NCBI GenBank assembly: GCA_964390745.1
Contig: CAYMIK010000003.1
Coordinates: 6,543 to 70,542, forward strand
Source: an uncultured Candidatus Saccharibacteria bacterium
GTDB lineage: Bacteria; Patescibacteriota; JAUYIX01; CAYMIK01
Length of the DNA stretch: 64,000 nucleotides
Direction of reading: 5' to 3'
The number at the start of each line of letters is the position of its first letter. Positions within the stretch are counted from its first letter, which is position 1. Positions 11,183-64,000 of this stretch are shown piece after piece. The notes under the pieces were generated by a model, which saw nothing but the letters and a program-made list of their open reading frames with translations, was not told the DNA's origin and searched no databases. The position numbers and the translations under genes were made by a program.

Positions 11183-12112
11183 TCATGGCTTCCTCCTTTT
11201 TCCGTGAAATGCTTTGTGAACTTCGCGAAGCTGTCTGTTGGTTAAGTGGGTATACACTTGTGTAGTTGTGATGCTTGAGTGACCCAACAAAGTTTGTACG
11301 CTTCGGATATCTGCGCCGTTCTGCAATAAGTCGGTTGCAAAGGAGTGGCGAAGTGTATGCGGTGTGATGTCCTTTGTGATTCCGGCCTTGGCGGCGTAGT
11401 GCTTCACAATACGCTGAATTGAGCGCGGTGTCAATCGGATATCTTCGTCGTCGCTCTTCATTCTTTTTGCTCTTCCGCGGTCGTATCGAATAAATAATGC
11501 CTCATCGCTGTCGTGTCGTTTGTCTAAATAGCGCTTCACCCAGGTTCTTGCATCCGGAGAAATAAAAACGATGCGCAATTTGTCTCCCTTTCCACGAACA
11601 GTAAACTCATCTTTGCCGAGATTGATTTGGTTGATGTTCAGATTGGCGATTTCACTCACGCGAAGTCCGGTAGAGAAGAGGAGTTCGAGTAATGCCCGGT
11701 CTCGCATGCCCTGCATGTTGGTAACATTGGGTTGCTTCAACAGACTTTCTACTTCATCAGCTTCCAAAAATTCAACTTGCCGCTGTGTGGCCTTGGGAAG
11801 TTCAATTTTTTCGGCAGCTAAAGTTTCAATATCTTGTTTTGCTAAGTATTTTAAGAATGCACGAAGTGCAATCACGTGATAGTTCTGTGTTGAGCGCTTT
11901 AAAAGTTCGCCAGATTTTTTTCCTGGGCGATTTAAATACACGCGATACTGTTTCACGAGCTCGTTCGTTATCTTTTTTGGATCGGTGACGCCAGCCCACG
12001 CCAAAAAGCGGGTGAGATAGTGATCGTAGTTCTCAATCGTTTTTTGTGATCGGTTTTTTTCGACTTCCATGTAGGTCAGGAAATCGGTTTTGAGATTTTG
12101 GAGGTTTGCCAT
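11183..12112 (-). CDS. Tyrosine site-specific recombinase (XerC/XerD / phage-integrase family).
   Basis: C-terminal catalytic region HTLRHSFATDLLQNGADIRSVQTLLGHSSITTTQVYTHL, with the R..H..R..Y tetrad context. N-terminal SAM-like core-binding domain. Confidence 0.85.
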   Translation of the reverse strand: MANLQNLKTDFLTYMEVEKNRSQKTIENYDHYLTRFLAWAGVTDPKKITNELVKQYRVYLNRPGKKSGELLKRSTQNYHVIALRAFLKYLAKQDIETLAAEKIELPKATQRQVEFLEADEVESLLKQPNVTNMQGMRDRALLELLFSTGLRVSEIANLNINQINLGKDEFTVRGKGDKLRIVFISPDARTWVKRYLDKRHDSDEALFIRYDRGRAKRMKSDDEDIRLTPRSIQRIVKHYAAKAGITKDITPHTLRHSFATDLLQNGADIRSVQTLLGHSSITTTQVYTHLTNRQLREVHKAFHGKRRKP

Positions 12113-12624: not shown

Positions 12625-12653
12625 TTGACAAAAATAACCCCATGTTGTAGAAT
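12625..12653 (+). promoter_or_regulatory. Near-consensus sigma70 promoter TTGACA-N17-TAGAAT upstream of rpsO (leader about 90 nt).
   Basis: TTGACA at 12625-12630, 17-nt spacer, TAGAAT at 12648-12653. Confidence 0.7.
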
Positions 12654-12742: not shown

Positions 12743-13018
12743 ATGGCACTCTCAAAGAATTCCAAGACCCGAATCATTAAGAAATTCCAGACTCACGAAA
12801 AAGATACGGGATCCCCAGAAGTTCAGGTTGCAGTTCTTACCAAGAAAATCAATCAGTTGACCTCTCATCTTAAGACCAACCGCAAGGACTTCAGCTCACG
12901 CCGAGGTTTATTGAAGATGGTTGCCAAGCGACGCAAGCTTTTGTCGTTCTTGAAGCGCGAAGATGAAAAACGATACAAAAAACTTCTCAAGTCTACTGGC
13001 TTGAAAGAAGTAGCTTAA
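12743..13018 (+). CDS. rpsO: 30S ribosomal protein S15.
   Basis: Full-length S15-like sequence (MALSKNSKTRIIKKFQTHEKDTGSPEVQVAVLTKKINQLTSHLK...). Canonical position upstream of pnp. Confidence 0.95.
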   Translation: MALSKNSKTRIIKKFQTHEKDTGSPEVQVAVLTKKINQLTSHLKTNRKDFSSRRGLLKMVAKRRKLLSFLKREDEKRYKKLLKSTGLKEVA

Positions 13019-13038
13019 AAAGTTCCAAGGAAAAAGAT

Positions 13039-13572
13039 TTGTTTCTCCAAAAAAACCCAAATCAACGTGTAGGAGTGTTCGTTGATGTGTCGAACATGTA
13101 TCATTCAGCGCGAAATATCTATCGCGCGCACTTGAATTTTGGTGCAGTTTTGGAAGCAGCCGTTGCCGGACGCCAGTTGGTTCGAGCCATTGCCTATGCT
13201 ATTAAGGCCGATGCTCCTGAAGAAGAAAAGTTTTTCCAGGCATTGGCGAATCAGGGTTTTGAACTCCAAATCAAAGAGCTCCAGACCTTTGCGGGCGGTG
13301 CGAAAAAGGGGGATTGGGACATGGGAATTGCTATCGACACCATTAAGTTGGCTCCAAAGCTTGATACCGTAATATTGGTATCAGGAGATGGAGACTACTC
13401 TGTGTTGTTGGAACACTTGCGCACTATGGGGTGCCGAGTTGAAGTAATTGCGTTCGCAGAAAGCGCATCGCACTTACTCAAAGCTGTTGCCGATGACTTC
13501 ACGGACATCTCACAAAACAAGAGAGCGTTCCTGAAGCGGGTGCCAGCTCGAAGATTGCCACCTCACCAGTAA
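13039..13572 (+). CDS. NYN-domain (LabA-like / DUF88) protein, a predicted RNase.
   Basis: VGVFVDVSNMYHSA... and ...ILVSGDGDYSVLLEHLRTMGCRVEVIAF are the NYN/LabA acidic-residue signatures. Confidence 0.75.
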   Translation: MFLQKNPNQRVGVFVDVSNMYHSARNIYRAHLNFGAVLEAAVAGRQLVRAIAYAIKADAPEEEKFFQALANQGFELQIKELQTFAGGAKKGDWDMGIAIDTIKLAPKLDTVILVSGDGDYSVLLEHLRTMGCRVEVIAFAESASHLLKAVADDFTDISQNKRAFLKRVPARRLPPHQ

Positions 13573-13610
13573 AAAGTGCGATCGTTTGTTCTCAGGCAAT
13601 TGCTCCTGAA

Positions 13611-13660
13611 GGCCATCCGGAGGCCGAGTGCGAATTTCCAGTGGGAAATTCGACACGTGC
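13611..13660 (+). repeat. Structured repeat element copy 1 (GGCCATCCGGAGGC...GTGCGAATTTCC-AGTG-GGAAATTCGACACGTGC) in the pnp leader.
   Basis: 12-bp hairpin. The same element with compensatory stem changes recurs at 15998-16102. Confidence 0.6.
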
Positions 13661-13820
13661 TTGAAGGGGGAACTGCCTGAGAGCAAAGAAAAAAAATTCA
13701 AAAAACAAAAACAAAAGCCCAACTCATTCAAGTTTTGTTTATAATTTAATTTTCTCTTCGTAAGACACATAGGCTTGGTTTACAAGTCTGCAGTCTTCCG
13801 AAGAGACATGAAAGGAAACT

Positions 13821-15965
13821 ATGCAAAAAGTTTCACGTCAGGAAACCGTTATTGACGGTAAGAAGGTAGTTTTAGAAGTAGGTAAATACGCAGCACAAGC
13901 AAATGGTGCCGCAACGTGCCAGATTGGCGAAACCGTTGTTTTGGCAACCGCTGTTATGGGAAAAGAAGATCCAAACATCGACTACTTCCCATTGATGGTT
14001 GAATATGAAGAGCGAATGTACGCTGCTGGAAAAATTAAGTCCAGCCGATTCGTAAAGCGCGAAGGCCGAGCAACCGACGAAGCAATTCTTACTGCTCGTT
14101 TGGTAGACCGAGGACTTCGTCCACTCTTTGCTGAAAGCTTTAAGCGACAAGTACAAATTATTGTGACCGTTTTGTCATACGATGGTGAAAACGATCCAGA
14201 TTTAGCAGCTATTCTTGCTGCCTCGACCGCATTGTTGGTTTCAGATATTCCATTTATGCAACCAATCGCTGGTATTCGTGTTGCTTCCATTGATGGCAAA
14301 TATGTTTTGATGCCATCAAAAGACCAAGAAGAGAAGAGTGTTATGGACTTAGTAGTTTCTGCTAAGGCAGATGGACTCGTAATGGTTGAAGCTGGTGCAA
14401 ATATGGTTACGGAAGAGTTGATTCTTGGTGGAATTGAGCAAGCACAAGCTGCTGCCAAGACGTTGTGTGAATTACAAGAAGCAGTTCGAAAAGAAGCTGG
14501 CCGCGAAAAAGTAGAAGTTGTTGCTCCTACGCATAACGAAGACCTCTATACAACCATGAAAAAACTTCTCGAACCAAAGTTCGAAGAAATTTTCATGACC
14601 AAAGGAAAAGTTGCACGAAACTTGGCCTTCTCTGCTCTCAAGGCTTCATTGAAAGAAGAGCTTGGTTCAACCCGATTCGCATCACTTAGCCCAGAAGACC
14701 TTTCAAACGAAGAAAAAGAATTTGCCGGCTACATGGAAGAGCTCTTCAATGAATACGTCCGAACACAAATCTTGCAGAACGCAAAACGATTTGAAGGACG
14801 AGCGCTTGACCAAATTCGAGACATCAATGTTCAGGTTGGCGTGTTGCCACGAACTCACGGAACAGGCTTGTTCCAACGTGGTGAAACGCAAGTTATGACC
14901 ATTGCAACTCTTGGAGCTCCAGGATCAGAGCAGATTTTGGACGGAATGGAATTGGATGAAAAGAAATACTACATGCACCACTACAACTTCCCAGGATTCT
15001 CGGTAGGCGAAGTTGAGCGAATGGGTTGGCCATCTCGACGAGAAATTGGACACGGCGCATTGGCAGAACGCGCACTCGTTCCTGTGTTGCCTGACCGCGC
15101 GAAGTTCCCATACATTGTACGATTGGTATCAGAAGTACTCGAAGCTAATGGTTCTACCTCAATGGCTTCAACCTGTGGTTCTACATTGGCACTCATGGAC
15201 GCTGGCGTTCCTATTAAGGCCCCAGTTGCAGGTGTTGCCATGGGACTCATCATGGACAAAGACGGCAAGTATCAGATCTTGACCGACATCCAAGGTGAAG
15301 AAGATCACTTAGGAGACATGGACTTCAAAGTTACCGGAACCAAAGATGGTGTTACGGCCATGCAAATGGATATCAAGGTTACAGGAATCACTCGAGAAGT
15401 GATGATTGAAGCCTTGGAGAAGGCAAAAGTTGCTCGTCAATTTATCTTGGATAAAATGACGGCAGTTATTCCTGCTCCACGAGCTGAACTTTCCAAGTTT
15501 GCTCCACGAATCGTAACGCTTACCATCAACCCAGCCAAGATTAAGGATGTTATTGGTAAGGGTGGCGAAACAATTAACAAGATCATTGACGAAACCGGCG
15601 TTGAGATTAACATTGAAGATGACGGACAGGTCAACATTGCTTCTGCCGACGGTGCAGCACTTGAAAAGGCTGTGAAGTGGGTGAACGATTTGACTCGTGA
15701 ACTTGAACCAGGTGAGTTGTTTGATGGAGTTGTTACGCGCGTTGAGAACTTTGGTGCATTCGTCCGCGTACTTCCTGGAAAAGAAGGATTGGTACACGTC
15801 TCACAAATTTCCAACAAGCGTATTGATGACCTTACCAAGGTTGTGAAGGTAGGGGACAAGATGAAAGTTATGGTTATGGAAATTGACGAAAAGGGACGAT
15901 TGAACTTGTCACGAACTTTGGCGATTGCAAAGATTGCTGAACAGAAGAACGAAGAAAAAAAGTAG
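13821..15965 (+). CDS. pnp: Polynucleotide phosphorylase (PNPase).
   Basis: Two RNase PH domains plus KH and S1 domains, readable throughout (e.g. FKVTGTKDGVTAMQMDIK; C-terminal S1 ...GLVHVSQIS...). Confidence 0.95.
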   Translation: MQKVSRQETVIDGKKVVLEVGKYAAQANGAATCQIGETVVLATAVMGKEDPNIDYFPLMVEYEERMYAAGKIKSSRFVKREGRATDEAILTARLVDRGLRPLFAESFKRQVQIIVTVLSYDGENDPDLAAILAASTALLVSDIPFMQPIAGIRVASIDGKYVLMPSKDQEEKSVMDLVVSAKADGLVMVEAGANMVTEELILGGIEQAQAAAKTLCELQEAVRKEAGREKVEVVAPTHNEDLYTTMKKLLEPKFEEIFMTKGKVARNLAFSALKASLKEELGSTRFASLSPEDLSNEEKEFAGYMEELFNEYVRTQILQNAKRFEGRALDQIRDINVQVGVLPRTHGTGLFQRGETQVMTIATLGAPGSEQILDGMELDEKKYYMHHYNFPGFSVGEVERMGWPSRREIGHGALAERALVPVLPDRAKFPYIVRLVSEVLEANGSTSMASTCGSTLALMDAGVPIKAPVAGVAMGLIMDKDGKYQILTDIQGEEDHLGDMDFKVTGTKDGVTAMQMDIKVTGITREVMIEALEKAKVARQFILDKMTAVIPAPRAELSKFAPRIVTLTINPAKIKDVIGKGGETINKIIDETGVEINIEDDGQVNIASADGAALEKAVKWVNDLTRELEPGELFDGVVTRVENFGAFVRVLPGKEGLVHVSQISNKRIDDLTKVVKVGDKMKVMVMEIDEKGRLNLSRTLAIAKIAEQKNEEKK

Positions 15966-15997
15966 TTTTCAGAAGTGTTTGAAGGTTCTGTCTGCTT

Positions 15998-16102
15998 GGC
16001 CATCCGGAGGCGGAGCGGGCATGGATCCGAGTCGCGTAAGCGACGAGGAGAGCGACGCCGAGGCCGAGTGCGAATTGCCCGCTGGGGCAATTCGACACGT
16101 GC
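15998..16102 (+). repeat. Structured repeat element copy 2 (the same flanks with hairpin GAATTGCCC-GCTG-GGGCAATTC, plus a 51-nt insertion containing a GUAA-tetraloop hairpin).
   Basis: Shares GGCCATCCGGAGGC and GCCGAGTGCGAATT...AATTCGACACGTGC with copy 1. Stem substitutions are compensatory. Confidence 0.6.
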
Positions 16103-16151
16103 CGAGCAGATCAGACCTTCAAACGCTCGCAAAAATTAAAAGGAGTGAACT

Positions 16152-17756
16152 GTGTCACGATTTCGACCACATCCAAGTTTGAAACAAGAACTTTCTTCGG
16201 ATCAAAAGAAGATCAGGAGCTTCGTCGTTATTGCAGGTCTTGTTATCTTGGTCGGTGTAGTTGCTGGAATTCTTGTCTGGCTCTTTTTTTCGAGCAAGAA
16301 TTTTAGCACGGCATCTCTGACGCCTATCGATTCCGAGCTCTACATGAAGCTTGAGTGGCGTGAGTCGAGTCAACAAAACACAAACTTGAATAATTTGAGC
16401 CTTAGCCTCGGTGGCCCTACCACCATCGATGACTTTTTACATTTGATGATTCCAAGTAAATTTGGAAATACTGCAGTGAACTTCCAGAGCGATATTGCTC
16501 CTTGGATAAGTGATGATGTTGCTATCGTGCGAAGACACCTTGGAAACAAAGACGAAGACATAAAGCTGTTTGTTGCCTCTGACAAAGATAAGGAGCAAGC
16601 TTTTCTTGATAAGATTACCCGCGAAGCCGATACTACGGCAAAAGAAAGCTACAAAGGATACCAAATCGAAAGTCTTTTTGGTACCGCTCAAGTTGCCTAC
16701 GCTCAAATCGGTAACACGGTTGCCTTTGCAGGAAAGCCCCAGGTTCTCCATGACGTCATTGATGTCGCCGTAGGGGACACAAAGCCACTTACCAAGGCTT
16801 CTGATTTCAAAGTCACACAACAACACCTTGATACGAATGTAGTTCTTTCAACCTTTATGGATATTGCACCCTTCTTGCGCCAACCTGGTGTTCTTGGATT
16901 GAGTGAGAGCGCCGCGCTATCGCTTTCGGGCAAGGCTCGGGTGGGAATTACGATGGCAGCAAAAGAAAATGGATTCGGTTTGCAGATTTTTATTCCAAGC
17001 CCCGCAAAGGATGGAGTAAAAAATAACTTCAACAACGATATTCTCGCGGTGACTCCAAACAATATTGCTGGATACATTGGAGCTTCTGATCTTTCGAGCT
17101 TCGCGAAGCAGTATCTTGCAACCATTTTCAATGTCAAAGAGCTGAAGGACCACAACATTACGCAAGATACTATTAGATCAAAGTATGGTGTTGATCTTGA
17201 TCAGGACCTCTTTAGCTGGATGCAGGGTCAGTACGCACTTGTTTCAACCGAACTTGGAAAAAGTGACTTCGCGCTTATCTTTAAAGTAGACAACAAAGAC
17301 CAAACACAGGCGGCGATGCGAAAAGTTGAGAAGGCAATTGTTGGGATTTCGAAAGAGTTGAGCAAAGAACCCGATAAGATACCTTCAGAATTTAGCGAAT
17401 CAGCTGGTGCCCGGTACCTGGCTCTCGGCGGAAAAACCAACACGTACCTCAACTATACGTTCAAAGATAACTTCCTGATCTTTGCAACCAACCGAGAGAC
17501 ATTAGACCTCGTTGTGAAGGGTAATGAGGGTCAGCCAAAGCTTTTGAATAGCAAGCAGTACGAGTTGGTGACAAAAGATCTTCCTTCTGGTAATGCAAGT
17601 GGCGGACTCTACTTCAGCGGTGACTTTGTTCTTGGCTTCTTGAAGAGTCTTGGCTTTAACCTTTCTGCCTTTAACCGTCACGTGGTAGGTTTAGGAATAA
17701 AATCTATCAATGAAACTGATGGAAAAATGATAACTGGCTTCTTGCCGATACTTTAA
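16152..17756 (+). CDS. Hypothetical membrane-anchored protein (single N-terminal TM, large extracytoplasmic domain).
   Basis: GTG start preceded by AAAAGGAG RBS. TM helix VVIAGLVILVGVVAGILVWLFF. No recognised catalytic motif. Confidence 0.6.
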   Translation: MSRFRPHPSLKQELSSDQKKIRSFVVIAGLVILVGVVAGILVWLFFSSKNFSTASLTPIDSELYMKLEWRESSQQNTNLNNLSLSLGGPTTIDDFLHLMIPSKFGNTAVNFQSDIAPWISDDVAIVRRHLGNKDEDIKLFVASDKDKEQAFLDKITREADTTAKESYKGYQIESLFGTAQVAYAQIGNTVAFAGKPQVLHDVIDVAVGDTKPLTKASDFKVTQQHLDTNVVLSTFMDIAPFLRQPGVLGLSESAALSLSGKARVGITMAAKENGFGLQIFIPSPAKDGVKNNFNNDILAVTPNNIAGYIGASDLSSFAKQYLATIFNVKELKDHNITQDTIRSKYGVDLDQDLFSWMQGQYALVSTELGKSDFALIFKVDNKDQTQAAMRKVEKAIVGISKELSKEPDKIPSEFSESAGARYLALGGKTNTYLNYTFKDNFLIFATNRETLDLVVKGNEGQPKLLNSKQYELVTKDLPSGNASGGLYFSGDFVLGFLKSLGFNLSAFNRHVVGLGIKSINETDGKMITGFLPIL

Positions 17757-61561: not shown

Positions 61562-62155
61562 TTGAGAAGGAGTCAAAAATATCGAACCATGATTCTACCA
61601 AAGTCTTTTTATGCCCGTTCACCTTTGCGGGTCGCACCTGATCTTCTTGGAAAAGAGATTGTGCGGCAAACTTCGTTTGGGCGCGTTGGTGGAATTATTA
61701 CCGAAGTTGAGGCCTATCGGGGACACCTTGATCCTGCCTCACACGCATTTCGCGGGGCGACTCCCAGAAATGAGGTCATGTTTGGCGATGGTGGTGTTGC
61801 CTACGTATACTTCATCTACGGAATGTATTTTTGTCTCAATGTGGTAACTGGAACAGCGGGAACGGCCTCTGCGGTACTTATTCGTGCTCTTGTGCCCGCT
61901 ACCGGAAAAAAGCTGCTTTTTGAGCGAATTCCGGCCGAAAAAGTAGCGTCATGTATGTCGGGACCAGGAAAACTCTGCAATGTTCTCGAAGTTGACCGAA
62001 GGTTAAACGGCAAAAGTTTTCGTGGACCAGAAATCACTCTGTATGATCGTAGGATTCGCGTGCCAAAAAAAGAAATTTTCAAAACACCACGCATTGGTAT
62101 TAAGGTGGGCACAGACAAGCTGTGGCGATTTGTGTGGGAGAGGGATGCGGAGTAG
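61562..62155 (+). CDS. mpg: DNA-3-methyladenine glycosylase (Mpg/AAG family).
   Basis: Family-typical LLGKEIVRQ...GGIITEVEAYRG...DPASHAFRG...GVAYVYFIYGMYFCLNVV. Alternative start at 61589. Confidence 0.8.
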   Translation: MRRSQKYRTMILPKSFYARSPLRVAPDLLGKEIVRQTSFGRVGGIITEVEAYRGHLDPASHAFRGATPRNEVMFGDGGVAYVYFIYGMYFCLNVVTGTAGTASAVLIRALVPATGKKLLFERIPAEKVASCMSGPGKLCNVLEVDRRLNGKSFRGPEITLYDRRIRVPKKEIFKTPRIGIKVGTDKLWRFVWERDAE

Positions 62156-62158
62156 TGA

Positions 62159-62344
62159 GGGCCGCTGGTCTTACCTCGGAACCGTTTCGGCATAACACTT
62201 CAAAAAGTCACACGACTACCGCAAGCGGGAGTGTGACTTTTTGAAGGTCCTGCACTACGCCCGCTCGTTGCTTTCTAGATCACGAGAGTTATTCGGCGTC
62301 ATCAAGAGCTCCTGCGCGAGTTTCCTTGGAAAGACCAGCGGCCC
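62159..62344. repeat. Nested perfect inverted repeats filling the mpg/recG convergent gap: outer 14 bp GGGCCGCTGGTCTT/AAGACCAGCGGCCC and inner 16 bp CTTCAAAAAGTCACAC/GTGTGACTTTTTGAAG.
   Basis: Both inverted repeats are perfect. The outer arms abut the two stop codons. The inner 17-nt loop contains the CCGCAAGCGG mini-hairpin. Confidence 0.65.
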
Positions 62345-62347
62345 TGA

Positions 62348-64000
62348 CTACTCCAAGTGCACTTTTGTTTCGAAAATTTCGAGCTGTTTTTTGATTTCCG
62401 GAGAATTCTTCAAGCGCAGGTCAGTCTTCAAAAGTTTCGCTGCATGTTCTTTGGCAATATTCACCAAGGCACGATCTTCAAGTGAGGCAATCTTGAGCTG
62501 TTCTAGGTAGCCAGATTGCAGCGTTCCATACACCTGGCCTGGGCCGCGGAATTTGAGGTCGGCTTCGGCCAAGGCAAAGCCATCGTCAAGTTTTTCAAGC
62601 GTTCGTAAGCGTTCCAGAGAATTTTCCGCAGAAGAGCCAGAAAACAACAAACAATATGATTTATCTGATCCGCGTCCAACGCGGCCACGAAGCTGATGAA
62701 GCTGTGCGAGACCAAATCGTTCAGCGTTCTCGATCATCATGACGGTGGCATTTGGCACATCAACGCCTACTTCAATCACGGATGTAGACAATAGCATGTC
62801 CATTTTTCCTTCACGAAAGGTTGTCATGGCCTCATCTTTTTCTTCCTTCTTCATTCTGCCGTGGACAAAACCAACACGAAACTCGGGGAAAATAACTTCT
62901 TGCAGCTTTTTGTGTTCAGCAAGAAGCGCTTTGGCTTGCAACTTTGCACTTGGCTCAATAAGCGGAAAGATAACGTAGGCTTGGTGGCCTTGCAAGAGCT
63001 CTTTCTTTATGAATCCATAGGCATCTTCACGTTTCGCGGGAGGAACGAGAAACGTTCCGATCTTTTTGCGGCCCTTTGGCTTGCTTCGAATCAAGGAAAT
63101 TTCAAGTTCACCAATAAGAACGAGCGCTAGACTTCTGGGGATGGGCGTAGCTGTCATGGATAAAAAGTGGGGAGTGTACCCTGAGTATTTCTTTTGCAAG
63201 AACGATCGTTGCATGACGCCAAAGCGCTGCTGTTCATCGATAACGATTAAACCAAGGTCGCGAAACGCAATCTTTTTTTCAAAGACTGCGTGTGTGCCAA
63301 TGACCAAATCAGATTTCTTTGTGGCGTCTGCCAAGGCCGCCGTAACCTTTTTTGATTTTCCGCCCCATGTTAAACGAGTCTTTGAGGTAACAAGCGTAAC
63401 CTTTACGTCAAAGCTACCAAAAACTTTCTTTGCGGTTTCAAAGTGTTGTTTTGCTAAGATCTCGGTAGGCGCAACCATGGCTGCTTGCAAGCCGGCTTCG
63501 ATGGCGGAGTGTGCTGCAATCATGGCACATACGGTTTTTCCGCTTCCTACGTCACCCTCAAGTAATCGGTTCATGGGGTGTTTTCGTTCCATGTCTTTCA
63601 GGATCTCGAATGTTGCCCGTTTTTGATCTACGGTTAAAGCGAAAGGGAGGGCAGAAACGATCTTCTGTGTTGCTGTGGCAACAAACGGAATATTTCTTGA
63701 GCGCAATCGCTGAAACTTTTTTTGAATTTGTTGTGAGTGAAGTTGGAGCAAAAAGAGTTCATCAAAAGCCAACCGCTTCTTTGCGGTGCTTACATCCGGA
63801 AGCGAGGAAGGGGAGTGAATGAGGCGCAGGGCTTCAGATAAGGAAGCCAAGCCTTCTTTCTTGAGAATTTCTTTTGGCATTGGGTCAGTAATTTCAGAAA
63901 CCATCTGGAGTGCTTCGTGAATCCAGAATCGCATTTGCTTGTGGGTGATGCCTTCAGTAAGGGCGTATTCGGCAATGAGGCGTGCGGTATGCACGGCTTC
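62348..64000 (-). CDS. recG: ATP-dependent DNA helicase RecG (5' end continues beyond the window).
   Basis: Helicase motif I GDVGSGKT, DEQQRFG (motif II), TATPIPRS, and C-terminal domain. The reading frame is open to the window edge. Confidence 0.9.
   Translation of the reverse strand, partial: EAVHTARLIAEYALTEGITHKQMRFWIHEALQMVSEITDPMPKEILKKEGLASLSEALRLIHSPSSLPDVSTAKKRLAFDELFLLQLHSQQIQKKFQRLRSRNIPFVATATQKIVSALPFALTVDQKRATFEILKDMERKHPMNRLLEGDVGSGKTVCAMIAAHSAIEAGLQAAMVAPTEILAKQHFETAKKVFGSFDVKVTLVTSKTRLTWGGKSKKVTAALADATKKSDLVIGTHAVFEKKIAFRDLGLIVIDEQQRFGVMQRSFLQKKYSGYTPHFLSMTATPIPRSLALVLIGELEISLIRSKPKGRKKIGTFLVPPAKREDAYGFIKKELLQGHQAYVIFPLIEPSAKLQAKALLAEHKKLQEVIFPEFRVGFVHGRMKKEEKDEAMTTFREGKMDMLLSTSVIEVGVDVPNATVMMIENAERFGLAQLHQLRGRVGRGSDKSYCLLFSGSSAENSLERLRTLEKLDDGFALAEADLKFRGPGQVYGTLQSGYLEQLKIASLEDRALVNIAKEHAAKLLKTDLRLKNSPEIKKQLEIFETKVHLE

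Follow-up and report, generated by a model that had tools for sequence, protein, structure and literature searches.

What is a GC-rich, strongly folded and conserved element of about 100 nucleotides (nt) doing on both sides of pnp, the gene for the main 3' exoribonuclease (PNPase), in the 64,000-nt stretch of contig CAYMIK010000003.1 from an uncultured Candidatus Saccharibacteria bacterium analyzed here (hereafter, the window)? The closest named genomes to the window are Patescibacteria and, because patescibacterial genomes are tiny and hold very little non-coding DNA, such an element is unlikely to be idle. We conclude that the two copies are homologous and that the structured element they represent is real, previously uncatalogued, backed by good comparative support and narrow in its distribution. 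Tentatively, with a rough probability of 40%, we read the copies as paralogues of one clade-specific structured RNA element, a cap that would sit on processing or stability hairpins flanking pnp.

Two copies of one element flank pnp

The preliminary description of this locus reported three sequences common to both copies, and an exact search of the 64 kilobases (kb) bears this out, the three 14-mers lying in the same order on the plus strand: GGCCATCCGGAGGC lies at 13611 and 15998, GCCGAGTGCGAATT at 13623 and 16063, and AATTCGACACGTGC at 13647 and 16089. No further exact matches to these 14-mers exist in the 64 kb, and with up to three mismatches allowed, the numbers of matches are about those expected by chance (4 for an expected 3.1, 7 for 6.6, and 6 for 6.6, respectively). 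The repeat unit first proposed, 13611-13660 and 15998-16102, captured the right cores, but the unit is larger, both cores being located at the tips of long hairpins, each directly after a stop codon (Table 1). In its full form, the element is a three-way junction between a long basal helix P1 (20-27 base pairs, bp), an irregular arm P2 and a helix P3. The outer stems of the two window sites, 20-27 bp long, are unrelated in sequence, and only the inner few pairs and the cap are held in common.

Both hairpins are predicted to be very stable. Hairpin 1, with P1 arms at ~13585-13612 and ~13658-13687 and a tandem G.A mismatch in UGAAGG/CUUGAA, has an RNA fold of -54.3 kcal/mol (z score -6.6), compared to -46.2 kcal/mol for the opposite strand, whereas the corresponding values for hairpin 2 are -82.8 (z score -7.5) and -75.2 kcal/mol. 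A covariance model was built from four long copies and scanned over the window and the related loci. Model scores are 114-120 bits for copy 2 (E ~1e-29) and 54-62 bits for copy 1 (E 4e-12 to 4e-15), the P2 model positions being skipped in the latter; a model built without copy 1 matches it at 54 bits (E ~4e-12) and copy 2 at 120 bits. A scan of the 64 kb with the filters off yields no other match above 12 bits.

Table 1. Features of the pnp locus, in window positions.
Feature	Positions	Strand	Description
Tyrosine recombinase gene (Phage_integrase family)	11183-12112	-	1.5 kb upstream; syntenic with the locus
Sigma-70-like promoter match	12625-12653	+	TTGACA-17-TAGAAT, upstream of rpsO; 11/12 consensus positions
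rpsO	12743-13018	+	Window gene order: rpsO, NYN gene, copy 1, pnp, copy 2, two DUF3352 genes
NYN-domain gene	13039-13572	+	Pfam PF01936, E 2e-37; stop codon 12 nt before hairpin 1
Whole hairpin 1	13584-13688	+	NYN-pnp spacer; P1 of ~27 bp and short-form cap; inverted repeat
Copy 1 core, short form	13611-13660	+	Junction strand, P3 hairpin and GUG; P2 arm missing
P3 of copy 1	13628-13656	+	GUG-CGAAUUUCC / AGUG loop / GGAAAUUCG-A-CAC; conserved bulged A
Conserved pnp 5' leader hairpin	13753-13806	+	Separate from the repeat; folded from an alignment of 8 orthologous leaders
pnp	13821-15965	+	PNPase, 714 aa, between both elements; Pfam RNase_PH x2, KH_1, S1
Whole hairpin 2	15975-16124	+	pnp-DUF3352 spacer; P1 of ~24 bp and long-form cap; inverted repeat
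Copy 2 core, full long form	15998-16102	+	Three-way junction with P2 and P3
P2 arm of copy 2	16004-16063	+	Tip hairpin pairs in L006, L005, L021 and L003 despite entirely different sequence
P3 of copy 2	16068-16098	+	GUG-CGAAUUGCCC / GCUG loop / GGGCAAUUCG-A-CAC

Two further observations had been made on the pair, namely, a compensated change of the central stem and a 51-nt insertion in copy 2. The former stands, with GAATTTCC/GGAAATTC in copy 1, GAATTGCCC/GGGCAATTC in copy 2, and the pair 93-104 going from U-A to G-C. Copy 2 does contain an extra piece with a GUAA hairpin (GUCGC-GUAA-GCGAC), but this piece measures 53 rather than 51 nt, with an ambiguous boundary (GAGGC is repeated on both sides), and the direction of the event is the reverse of that suggested. 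The piece corresponds to an ancestral P2 arm, and copy 1, judged against its relatives, is a deletion derivative that has lost this arm, because two related loci, L005 and L020, carry the full long form upstream of pnp, at the same site and on the same outer stem as copy 1. The deletion begins and ends in the GAGGC direct repeat found on either side of P2, and the arm was probably lost by deletion between these repeats. Such deletions are common: besides W1, they affect L003dn and L005dn, and perhaps L021up (W1 and W2 denote window copies 1 and 2; up and dn, sites upstream and downstream of pnp; + and -, the orientation of the element).

Architecture and covariation

Several non-canonical features recur in the full form. 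Typically, P1 is interrupted by a tandem G.A mismatch that lies three to four pairs below the junction. The lowest part of P2 is a covarying base helix of 2-5 bp (C-G, A-U, U-A); above it come a bulged G, a tandem G.A, GGCG/CGCC, another tandem G.A, GC/GC and an asymmetric loop (GGGCAUGG) that is conserved. P2 thus contains two or three tandem G.A mismatches, and it ends in a tip hairpin that differs completely in sequence between lineages, its pairing always being kept. In copy 2, this arm consists, from base to tip, of CC/GG, the bulged G, a tandem G.A, GGCG/CGCC, a tandem G.A, GC/GC and the asymmetric loop GGGCAUGGA/GA, after which the tip reads UCC-GA-GUCGC GUAA GCGAC-GA-GGA. P3 spans 12-13 bp, and both its bulged A and its loop are conserved. 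Alignment columns 22/76, 23/75, 28/70 and 29/69 are G.A or A.G in most sequences, and across the helices 35 mismatched cells are G.A or A.G, compared to 6 that are C.U or U.C. Although G.A-rich, P2 differs by sequence from a canonical kink-turn, in which tandem sheared G.A pairs are accompanied by a 3-nt bulge between a canonical and a non-canonical stem, in that the bulge by the tandem G.A is a single G at the P2 base and no bulge is found at the second motif.

To assess the proposal that selection acts on secondary structure, covariation was measured in 7 distinct full sequences, all from one narrow clade, against 500 shuffles and registers in which the partner strand had been slid. Paired cells amount to 79.7%, compared to 66.3% in the shuffles; changes on both sides are found in 22 of the 41 pairs, a value reached by none of the 500 shuffles and well above the 5-11 obtained in slid registers; and the covariation score is 0.36, against 0.14 in the shuffles (0/500 reach it) and 0.06-0.12 in the slid registers. 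Within the P3 helix, 97.5% of the cells are paired and 5 of the 12 pairs have changed on both sides. The proposal is thus upheld, and the support for pairing that these 7 related sequences appear to provide is solid but not overwhelming.

Sequence conservation adds to this picture. Between the window and L006, identity at the fourfold-degenerate sites of pnp is down to 40%, which amounts to saturation; between the window and the relatives with 94-96% identity, it is 58-63%. Nevertheless, W2 and L006up share four identical blocks of 11-20 nt (CGGAGGCGGAGCGGGCATGG, AGAGCGACGCCGAG, GAGTGCGAATT and AATTCGACACGTGCC), whereas their P2 tips are unrelated in sequence and the distal P3 differs with compensation. 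Likewise, the outer stem of W1 is nearly identical in L005 and L020, although the neutral identity between the window and L005 is only 58%. Identical core blocks at synonymous saturation, together with a compensated periphery, argue that the core is conserved beyond neutral expectation, the pattern in these alignments being that of a constrained RNA core with free peripheral helices, unlike a generic hairpin.

This conservation pattern already disfavors the plainest account of the locus, in which both hairpins are ordinary spacer hairpins, either terminators or RNase III sites, with tips similar by chance and a cap devoid of its own function. Such an account fits the position of both hairpins directly after stop codons, the plain downstream hairpins of L003 and L005 and the U-tract terminator of L006, and a long stem alone could explain why either orientation is tolerated. 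However, chance similarity would leave the identical 11-20-nt blocks at synonymous saturation, the compensatory changes in P2 and P3 and the conservation of the G.A motifs and of the bulged A without explanation, and no U-tract follows the stems; we consider this account very improbable.

The two strands of the element also differ. The element-sense strand folds better than its complement by 7-13 kcal/mol in all 5 loci folded on both strands, including the inverted copy of L003, in which the element-sense strand is antisense to pnp. The better fold and the G.A excess on one strand are features of a nucleic acid that is single-stranded and read in only one sense, RNA being the simplest candidate.

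Comparison with known RNA classes provides no assignment. None of the 4227 families of Rfam 15 matches the element, and in the window only transfer RNAs (tRNAs) reach the gathering score; Rfam scans of the two copies and of L006 with E-values up to 10 yield nothing but scattered chance matches of 6-21 bits, and ARAGORN calls neither a tRNA nor a transfer-messenger RNA at the element. The hammerhead core, group II domain 5, signal recognition particle RNA domain IV, 5S ribosomal RNA (rRNA), Y RNA, retron non-coding RNA and integron attC were rejected by inspection, because the junction strands and arms of the element do not fit them, and no reverse transcriptase, TROVE-domain or intI context is present near the element. 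A pseudoknot between the junction CCAU and the P2 loop AUGG, noticed by eye, can form in W2 and L006 but not in L005, L003 or L021, and was dropped.

Occupancy, orientation and possible exchange in related genomes

A PNPase protein search recovered six close clusters at 72-100% identity, after which identity drops to 56%, and the contigs of these relatives were scanned with the covariance model. The relatives add nine copies or remnants to the two in the window. Each of these occupies one of the two sites flanking pnp, and none of the genomes that carry them falls below 77% PNPase identity. W1, W2, L005up, L020up, L006up, L003up(-), L021dn(-) and L020dn(-) score 47-125 bits, whereas the two copies of L024, truncated by the contig ends, score 42 and 31 bits. 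The L024 locus (NCBI GCA_964573485.1, contig CAZNJS010000154.1, 2525 nt) starts in the upstream copy (1-97) and ends in the downstream one (2469-2525); the repeat evidently caused the break during assembly, and this independently indicates that the two copies are near-identical in that genome.

Occupancy and orientation vary from locus to locus. The window carries a short plus form upstream and a long plus form downstream of pnp; L020 has a plus copy upstream and a minus copy downstream, and L024 has minus copies at both sites. In L003/L004, the upstream copy is minus and the downstream site retains a hairpin on the same outer stem with only a remnant loop, GTGCGAGCTA, corresponding to the 3' end of the element. 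L005 combines an upstream plus copy with the remnant of a downstream minus copy, L021 has no hairpin at all upstream and a minus copy downstream, and L006 has a plus copy upstream and a plain U-tract terminator downstream. No element is found at pnp in L007, L008/L009, L022/L023, L001 or L002, and a separate PNPase protein scan of genome contigs returned only two distant loci, both lacking the element. Wherever an element-bearing genome could be checked, one or more long-form copies proved intact.

At 6307-6383 (+) of L007, between a xerC-like gene and an unknown gene, a long hairpin that is AU-rich except for its GC-rich tip scores 22-24 bits; the alignment matches mainly in shape, and this hairpin, which may be a very diverged member or merely similar in shape, was not counted.

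The orientation changes appear to involve the stem itself. A single-nucleotide bulge in the downstream outer stem is located in the 5' arm in L003, which has a plus-type remnant, but in the 3' arm in L020 and L021, which have minus copies. Because the bulge moves with the cap, the inverted segment, as reconstructed from these stems, includes the inner stem and has its breakpoints in the outer stem. In addition, orientation is at odds with the PNPase tree: L024 groups with L005 yet is inverted, so that flips have recurred. Hairpin-associated loop flips are known from plastid DNA, where they need no dedicated enzyme (PMC12371153, citing Kelchner & Wendel 1996). There, too, a hairpin loop is repeatedly inverted between close relatives via flanking inverted repeats, but the plastid loops measure 4-50 bp, whereas the segment considered here is 50-105 nt long and structured, and the parallel covers the flip mechanism only, not function. 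Furthermore, the types of P2 tip do not follow the site, L024up resembling L020dn, and W2 resembling both L006up and L021dn, which suggests exchange between the upstream and downstream sites. Taken at face value, the comparisons describe an unusual evolutionary behavior, which combines stem-mediated flipping, exchange between the pnp flanks and decay of the redundant copy.

An inverted-repeat-flanked segment present in both orientations at both sites, with a Phage_integrase-family gene syntenic with the locus, could alternatively be a programmed inverton, in which the stem arms serve as inverted repeats and the minus-strand tyrosine recombinase flips the cap to change the expression of pnp or of downstream genes. 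However, the inverted repeats of the two sites are unrelated and hence offer no shared recombinase site, the invertible part is 55-69% GC, and scans of both its strands in the window, L003 and L021 called no promoter; L007, L008 and L009, which lack the element, have the recombinase gene just as well. Moreover, independent samples of one lineage (L003 and L004) share the same orientation, and small hairpin inversions need no dedicated enzyme (PMC12371153). An inverton driven by the nearby tyrosine recombinase is unlikely, and we give the programmed reading hardly any weight.

A more serious competitor is a selfish palindromic DNA element of the ERIC, Correia or REP kind, inserting into the loops of spacer hairpins or spreading between them, in which case conservation would reflect recent spread or gene conversion rather than function. 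Either orientation, presence/absence polymorphism and size variants (the short W1 against the long forms) are all traits of repeat families: close strains differ in presence, the upstream hairpin being absent from L021 and remnants persisting in L003 and L005, and sequence types do not follow sites. The break of the L024 contig in both copies also speaks for this reading. The likeness is close with ERIC (IRU), 127-bp imperfect palindromes of enterobacteria that, as is probably true of the present element, occupy transcribed intergenic spacers and, like it, occur in either orientation, vary in presence and come in size variants, the latter reportedly formed by internal deletion or insertion (work attributed to Hulton, 1991, and Wilson & Sharp, 2006). 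ERIC lie in transcribed spacers, are unusually conserved, yield long stem-loop transcripts and, depending on orientation, affect the stability of neighboring messenger RNA (mRNA), and Correia transcripts are likewise long stem-loops in operons (PMC2229807). In Neisseria, the Correia elements (NEMIS) form hairpins that are co-transcribed and whose long double-stranded stems have been proposed as RNase III targets through which flanking mRNAs are modulated (PMC2229807), and the present element, if co-transcribed as we suppose, shares these properties.

Nevertheless, the tests of membership in a mobile family point the other way. The preliminary description raised a REP/MITE-like mobile hairpin family as one option, yet the search for copies made here returned only pnp-flanking ones: two in the 64 kb, and none elsewhere in the eleven related loci, whose distinct contig sequence amounts to ~125 kb. 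The P3 pattern GAGTGCGAATTN{4,24}AATTCGACAC has no matches in viral contigs, and blastn against phages, plasmids and E. coli genomes finds nothing. A scan of 241 million metagenome records gave a single match to the P3 pattern, dismissed as chance since it lies in a high-GC coding region, and nine viral matches to a P2-base pattern, all in high-GC sequence without the rest of the element, were set aside as compositional. Outer stems differ by site and there are no terminal inverted repeats common to all copies; no target-site duplication is clear between the empty site of L021 and the filled site of L005, the flanks being A-rich and diverged; no transposase lies nearby, the sole recombinase gene being present in element-less genomes as well; and the compensatory changes of the stems at one site speak for vertical descent. 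By contrast, ERIC exist in tens to hundreds of dispersed copies sharing a consensus that includes terminal repeats, whereas here the stems are site-specific, only the tip is common, and no E. coli genome has a similar sequence. Similarly, Correia elements number in the hundreds, end in conserved 24-bp terminal inverted repeats and are flanked by TA target duplications, none of which is seen here. REP, BIME and REPIN sequences are extragenic palindromes at gene ends, found in both orientations and proposed to stabilize mRNA (PMC3733652, PMC3116915); position and orientation are shared with the present element, but REPs conserve the stem and vary the loop, whereas here the tip is conserved and the stem varies, and, unlike the element, they are high-copy and associated with RAYT transposases. 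Despite these failures, the close likeness to ERIC keeps the selfish reading alive, as a possibility that we regard as unlikely.

Transcription and possible function at pnp

The promoter match upstream of rpsO is the only strong one in the region (a consensus match only), and no U-tract terminator was called at either window hairpin, the sequence 3' of copy 1 being A-rich. One strong promoter match, together with the lack of a U-tract after either copy, suggests that both copies probably lie within a single long transcript, rpsO-NYN-pnp-DUF3352, from the rpsO promoter. No promoter was called beside either window copy, the L003 upstream copy or the L021 downstream copy. The order rpsO-NYN-pnp is kept in every related locus reaching that far upstream. 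The NYN gene, encoding a predicted nuclease, is positioned between rpsO and pnp lineage-wide, including L022/L023 at 56% PNPase identity, whereas in the more distant L001 pnp directly follows rpsO, with no NYN gene between them. Among the 94-96% relatives, the A-rich tract at 13690-13750 (+) after hairpin 1 (AAAGAAAAAAAATTCAAAAAACAAAAACAAAAGCCC ... GTTTTGTTTATAAT) shows good conservation. It includes a TATAAT hexamer and could hold a secondary pnp promoter, though the consensus scan called none there.

In E. coli, the hairpin in the rpsO-pnp leader is the site of autoregulation by RNase III and PNPase, and the element, as a long hairpin in the spacer upstream of pnp in an rpsO-pnp operon, had been likened to it. 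By position and conservation, however, the counterpart is a separate hairpin at 13753-13806. Its arms, CUCUUCGU / AGAC / UAGGCUUG ... CAAGUCUG / GUCU / CCGAAGAG, form 21 predicted pairs, 5 of which have changed on both sides among 8 leaders that include the element-less L007 and L008, and every orthologous leader has it, down to the relatives with 72% PNPase identity. This hairpin belongs to no Rfam family, a chance match to mir-7 being the only one, and is the likely analogue of the RNase III/PNPase autoregulatory site. The element, in contrast, is variably present, invertible and also found downstream of pnp: it is absent upstream in L021, L007, L008, L022 and L001, and inverted in L003, L004 and L024.

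The other option raised at the outset, a conserved processing signal, is plausible as part of the best explanation. In the reading that we favor, the functional unit would be the whole hairpin, composed of the long basal helix P1 and the GC-rich three-way-junction cap, with one hairpin in each of the two apparently transcribed spacers that border pnp. The long stem would act as a double-strand-specific processing site or as a block to 3' exonucleases, delimiting the pnp message, and at 20-27 bp the P1 stems are long enough in principle for RNase III cleavage. This role of the stem would survive a flip, whereas the G.A-rich cap, conceivably a protein-binding or tertiary-fold module, would be active only when its own strand is transcribed. 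Flips would result from recombination or template switching between the stem arms, and the presence of two copies would allow one of them to decay. A partial precedent is provided by the intervening sequences of 23S rRNA, which add ~100 structured nt at the tip of a helix, occur sporadically among strains and have a stem suited to excision by RNase III. The element resembles them in being a structured, sporadic ~100-nt sequence at the tip of a pre-existing helix with a long stem, but its host helix is an mRNA spacer hairpin rather than rRNA.

Several observations weigh against this interpretation. L003/L004, L021 and L024 carry minus copies only, all structurally intact; a cap that works only when read from the operon transcript would leave such genomes without a working copy. 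Either antisense transcription occurs there, which would favor a trans-acting small RNA, or the flips are recent and the copies have not yet decayed. Copy 1 lacks P2 and may be non-functional. L007 and L008, at 72% PNPase identity, have no element near pnp, indicating that it is dispensable on longer time scales. Finally, the 7 full sequences are few and related, so that shared ancestry can inflate the contrast with the shuffled control, and the transcription, processing and active strand of the element are all deduced from sequence.

If transcribed antisense, the intact minus copies would lend weight to the idea of a stand-alone gene for a trans-acting small RNA residing in the pnp spacers, either protein-binding, possibly with PNPase or RNase III as a partner, or a ribozyme, for which one intact copy per genome would matter, at any site and in any orientation. 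Consistent with this idea, at least one intact long copy persists in each checkable genome, with variable site and strand and with decay of second copies, minus copies retain the strand-specific G.A motifs, the conserved core with variable peripheral hairpins is the usual signature of functional RNA, and the GC content of the element (55-69%) exceeds that of the genome and of the window (46%). Yet no promoter- or terminator-like sequence travels with the element in the own-sense flanks of any copy, and, the neighboring genes all being on the plus strand, minus copies would need fortuitous antisense promoters. The absence of the element near pnp in relatives at 72% identity or below and the lack of a match in Rfam count against it as well, leaving an independent small RNA gene a doubtful alternative, about on a par with the selfish one. 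Bolder still, and in our judgment a long shot, the G.A-rich three-way-junction cap could represent a new functional RNA class of this patescibacterial clade, acting as a partner of an RNA-decay protein or as a ribozyme, freed from operon or antisense transcripts by cleavage of the basal stem and kept in at least one copy per genome whatever the site or orientation, with each flip toggling a copy on or off.

If our favored reading is correct, with the stems as processing sites and the cap binding a protein, the element would add a lineage-specific layer of control over pnp and the decay of the operon mRNA. Irrespective of function, it offers a clean natural example of a structured element flipping via its own stem, and flips of this kind, which place reverse-complemented sequence at orthologous sites, are a potential source of error for annotation as well as for RNA discovery based on covariation. 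The known distribution, a handful of metagenome-assembled strains, is very narrow, and the general impact will be modest unless a function is shown.

Two minor observations concern the window more broadly. Along 12743-16552, identity to L005, L003 and L021 is mosaic, 75-column windows ranging from 0.68 to 0.99 inside the same genes, which suggests recombination between strains of the clade. In addition, positions 62149-62354, between convergent open reading frames (61562-62155 on the plus and 62348-63994 on the minus strand), hold another large structured spacer, which has no match in Rfam and no sequence relationship to the pnp element. Its 33-bp outer stem, 88% complementary, encloses ~140 nt, including a perfect 16-bp inner hairpin at 62198-62246, and the whole folds at -107 kcal/mol (z score -8.5).

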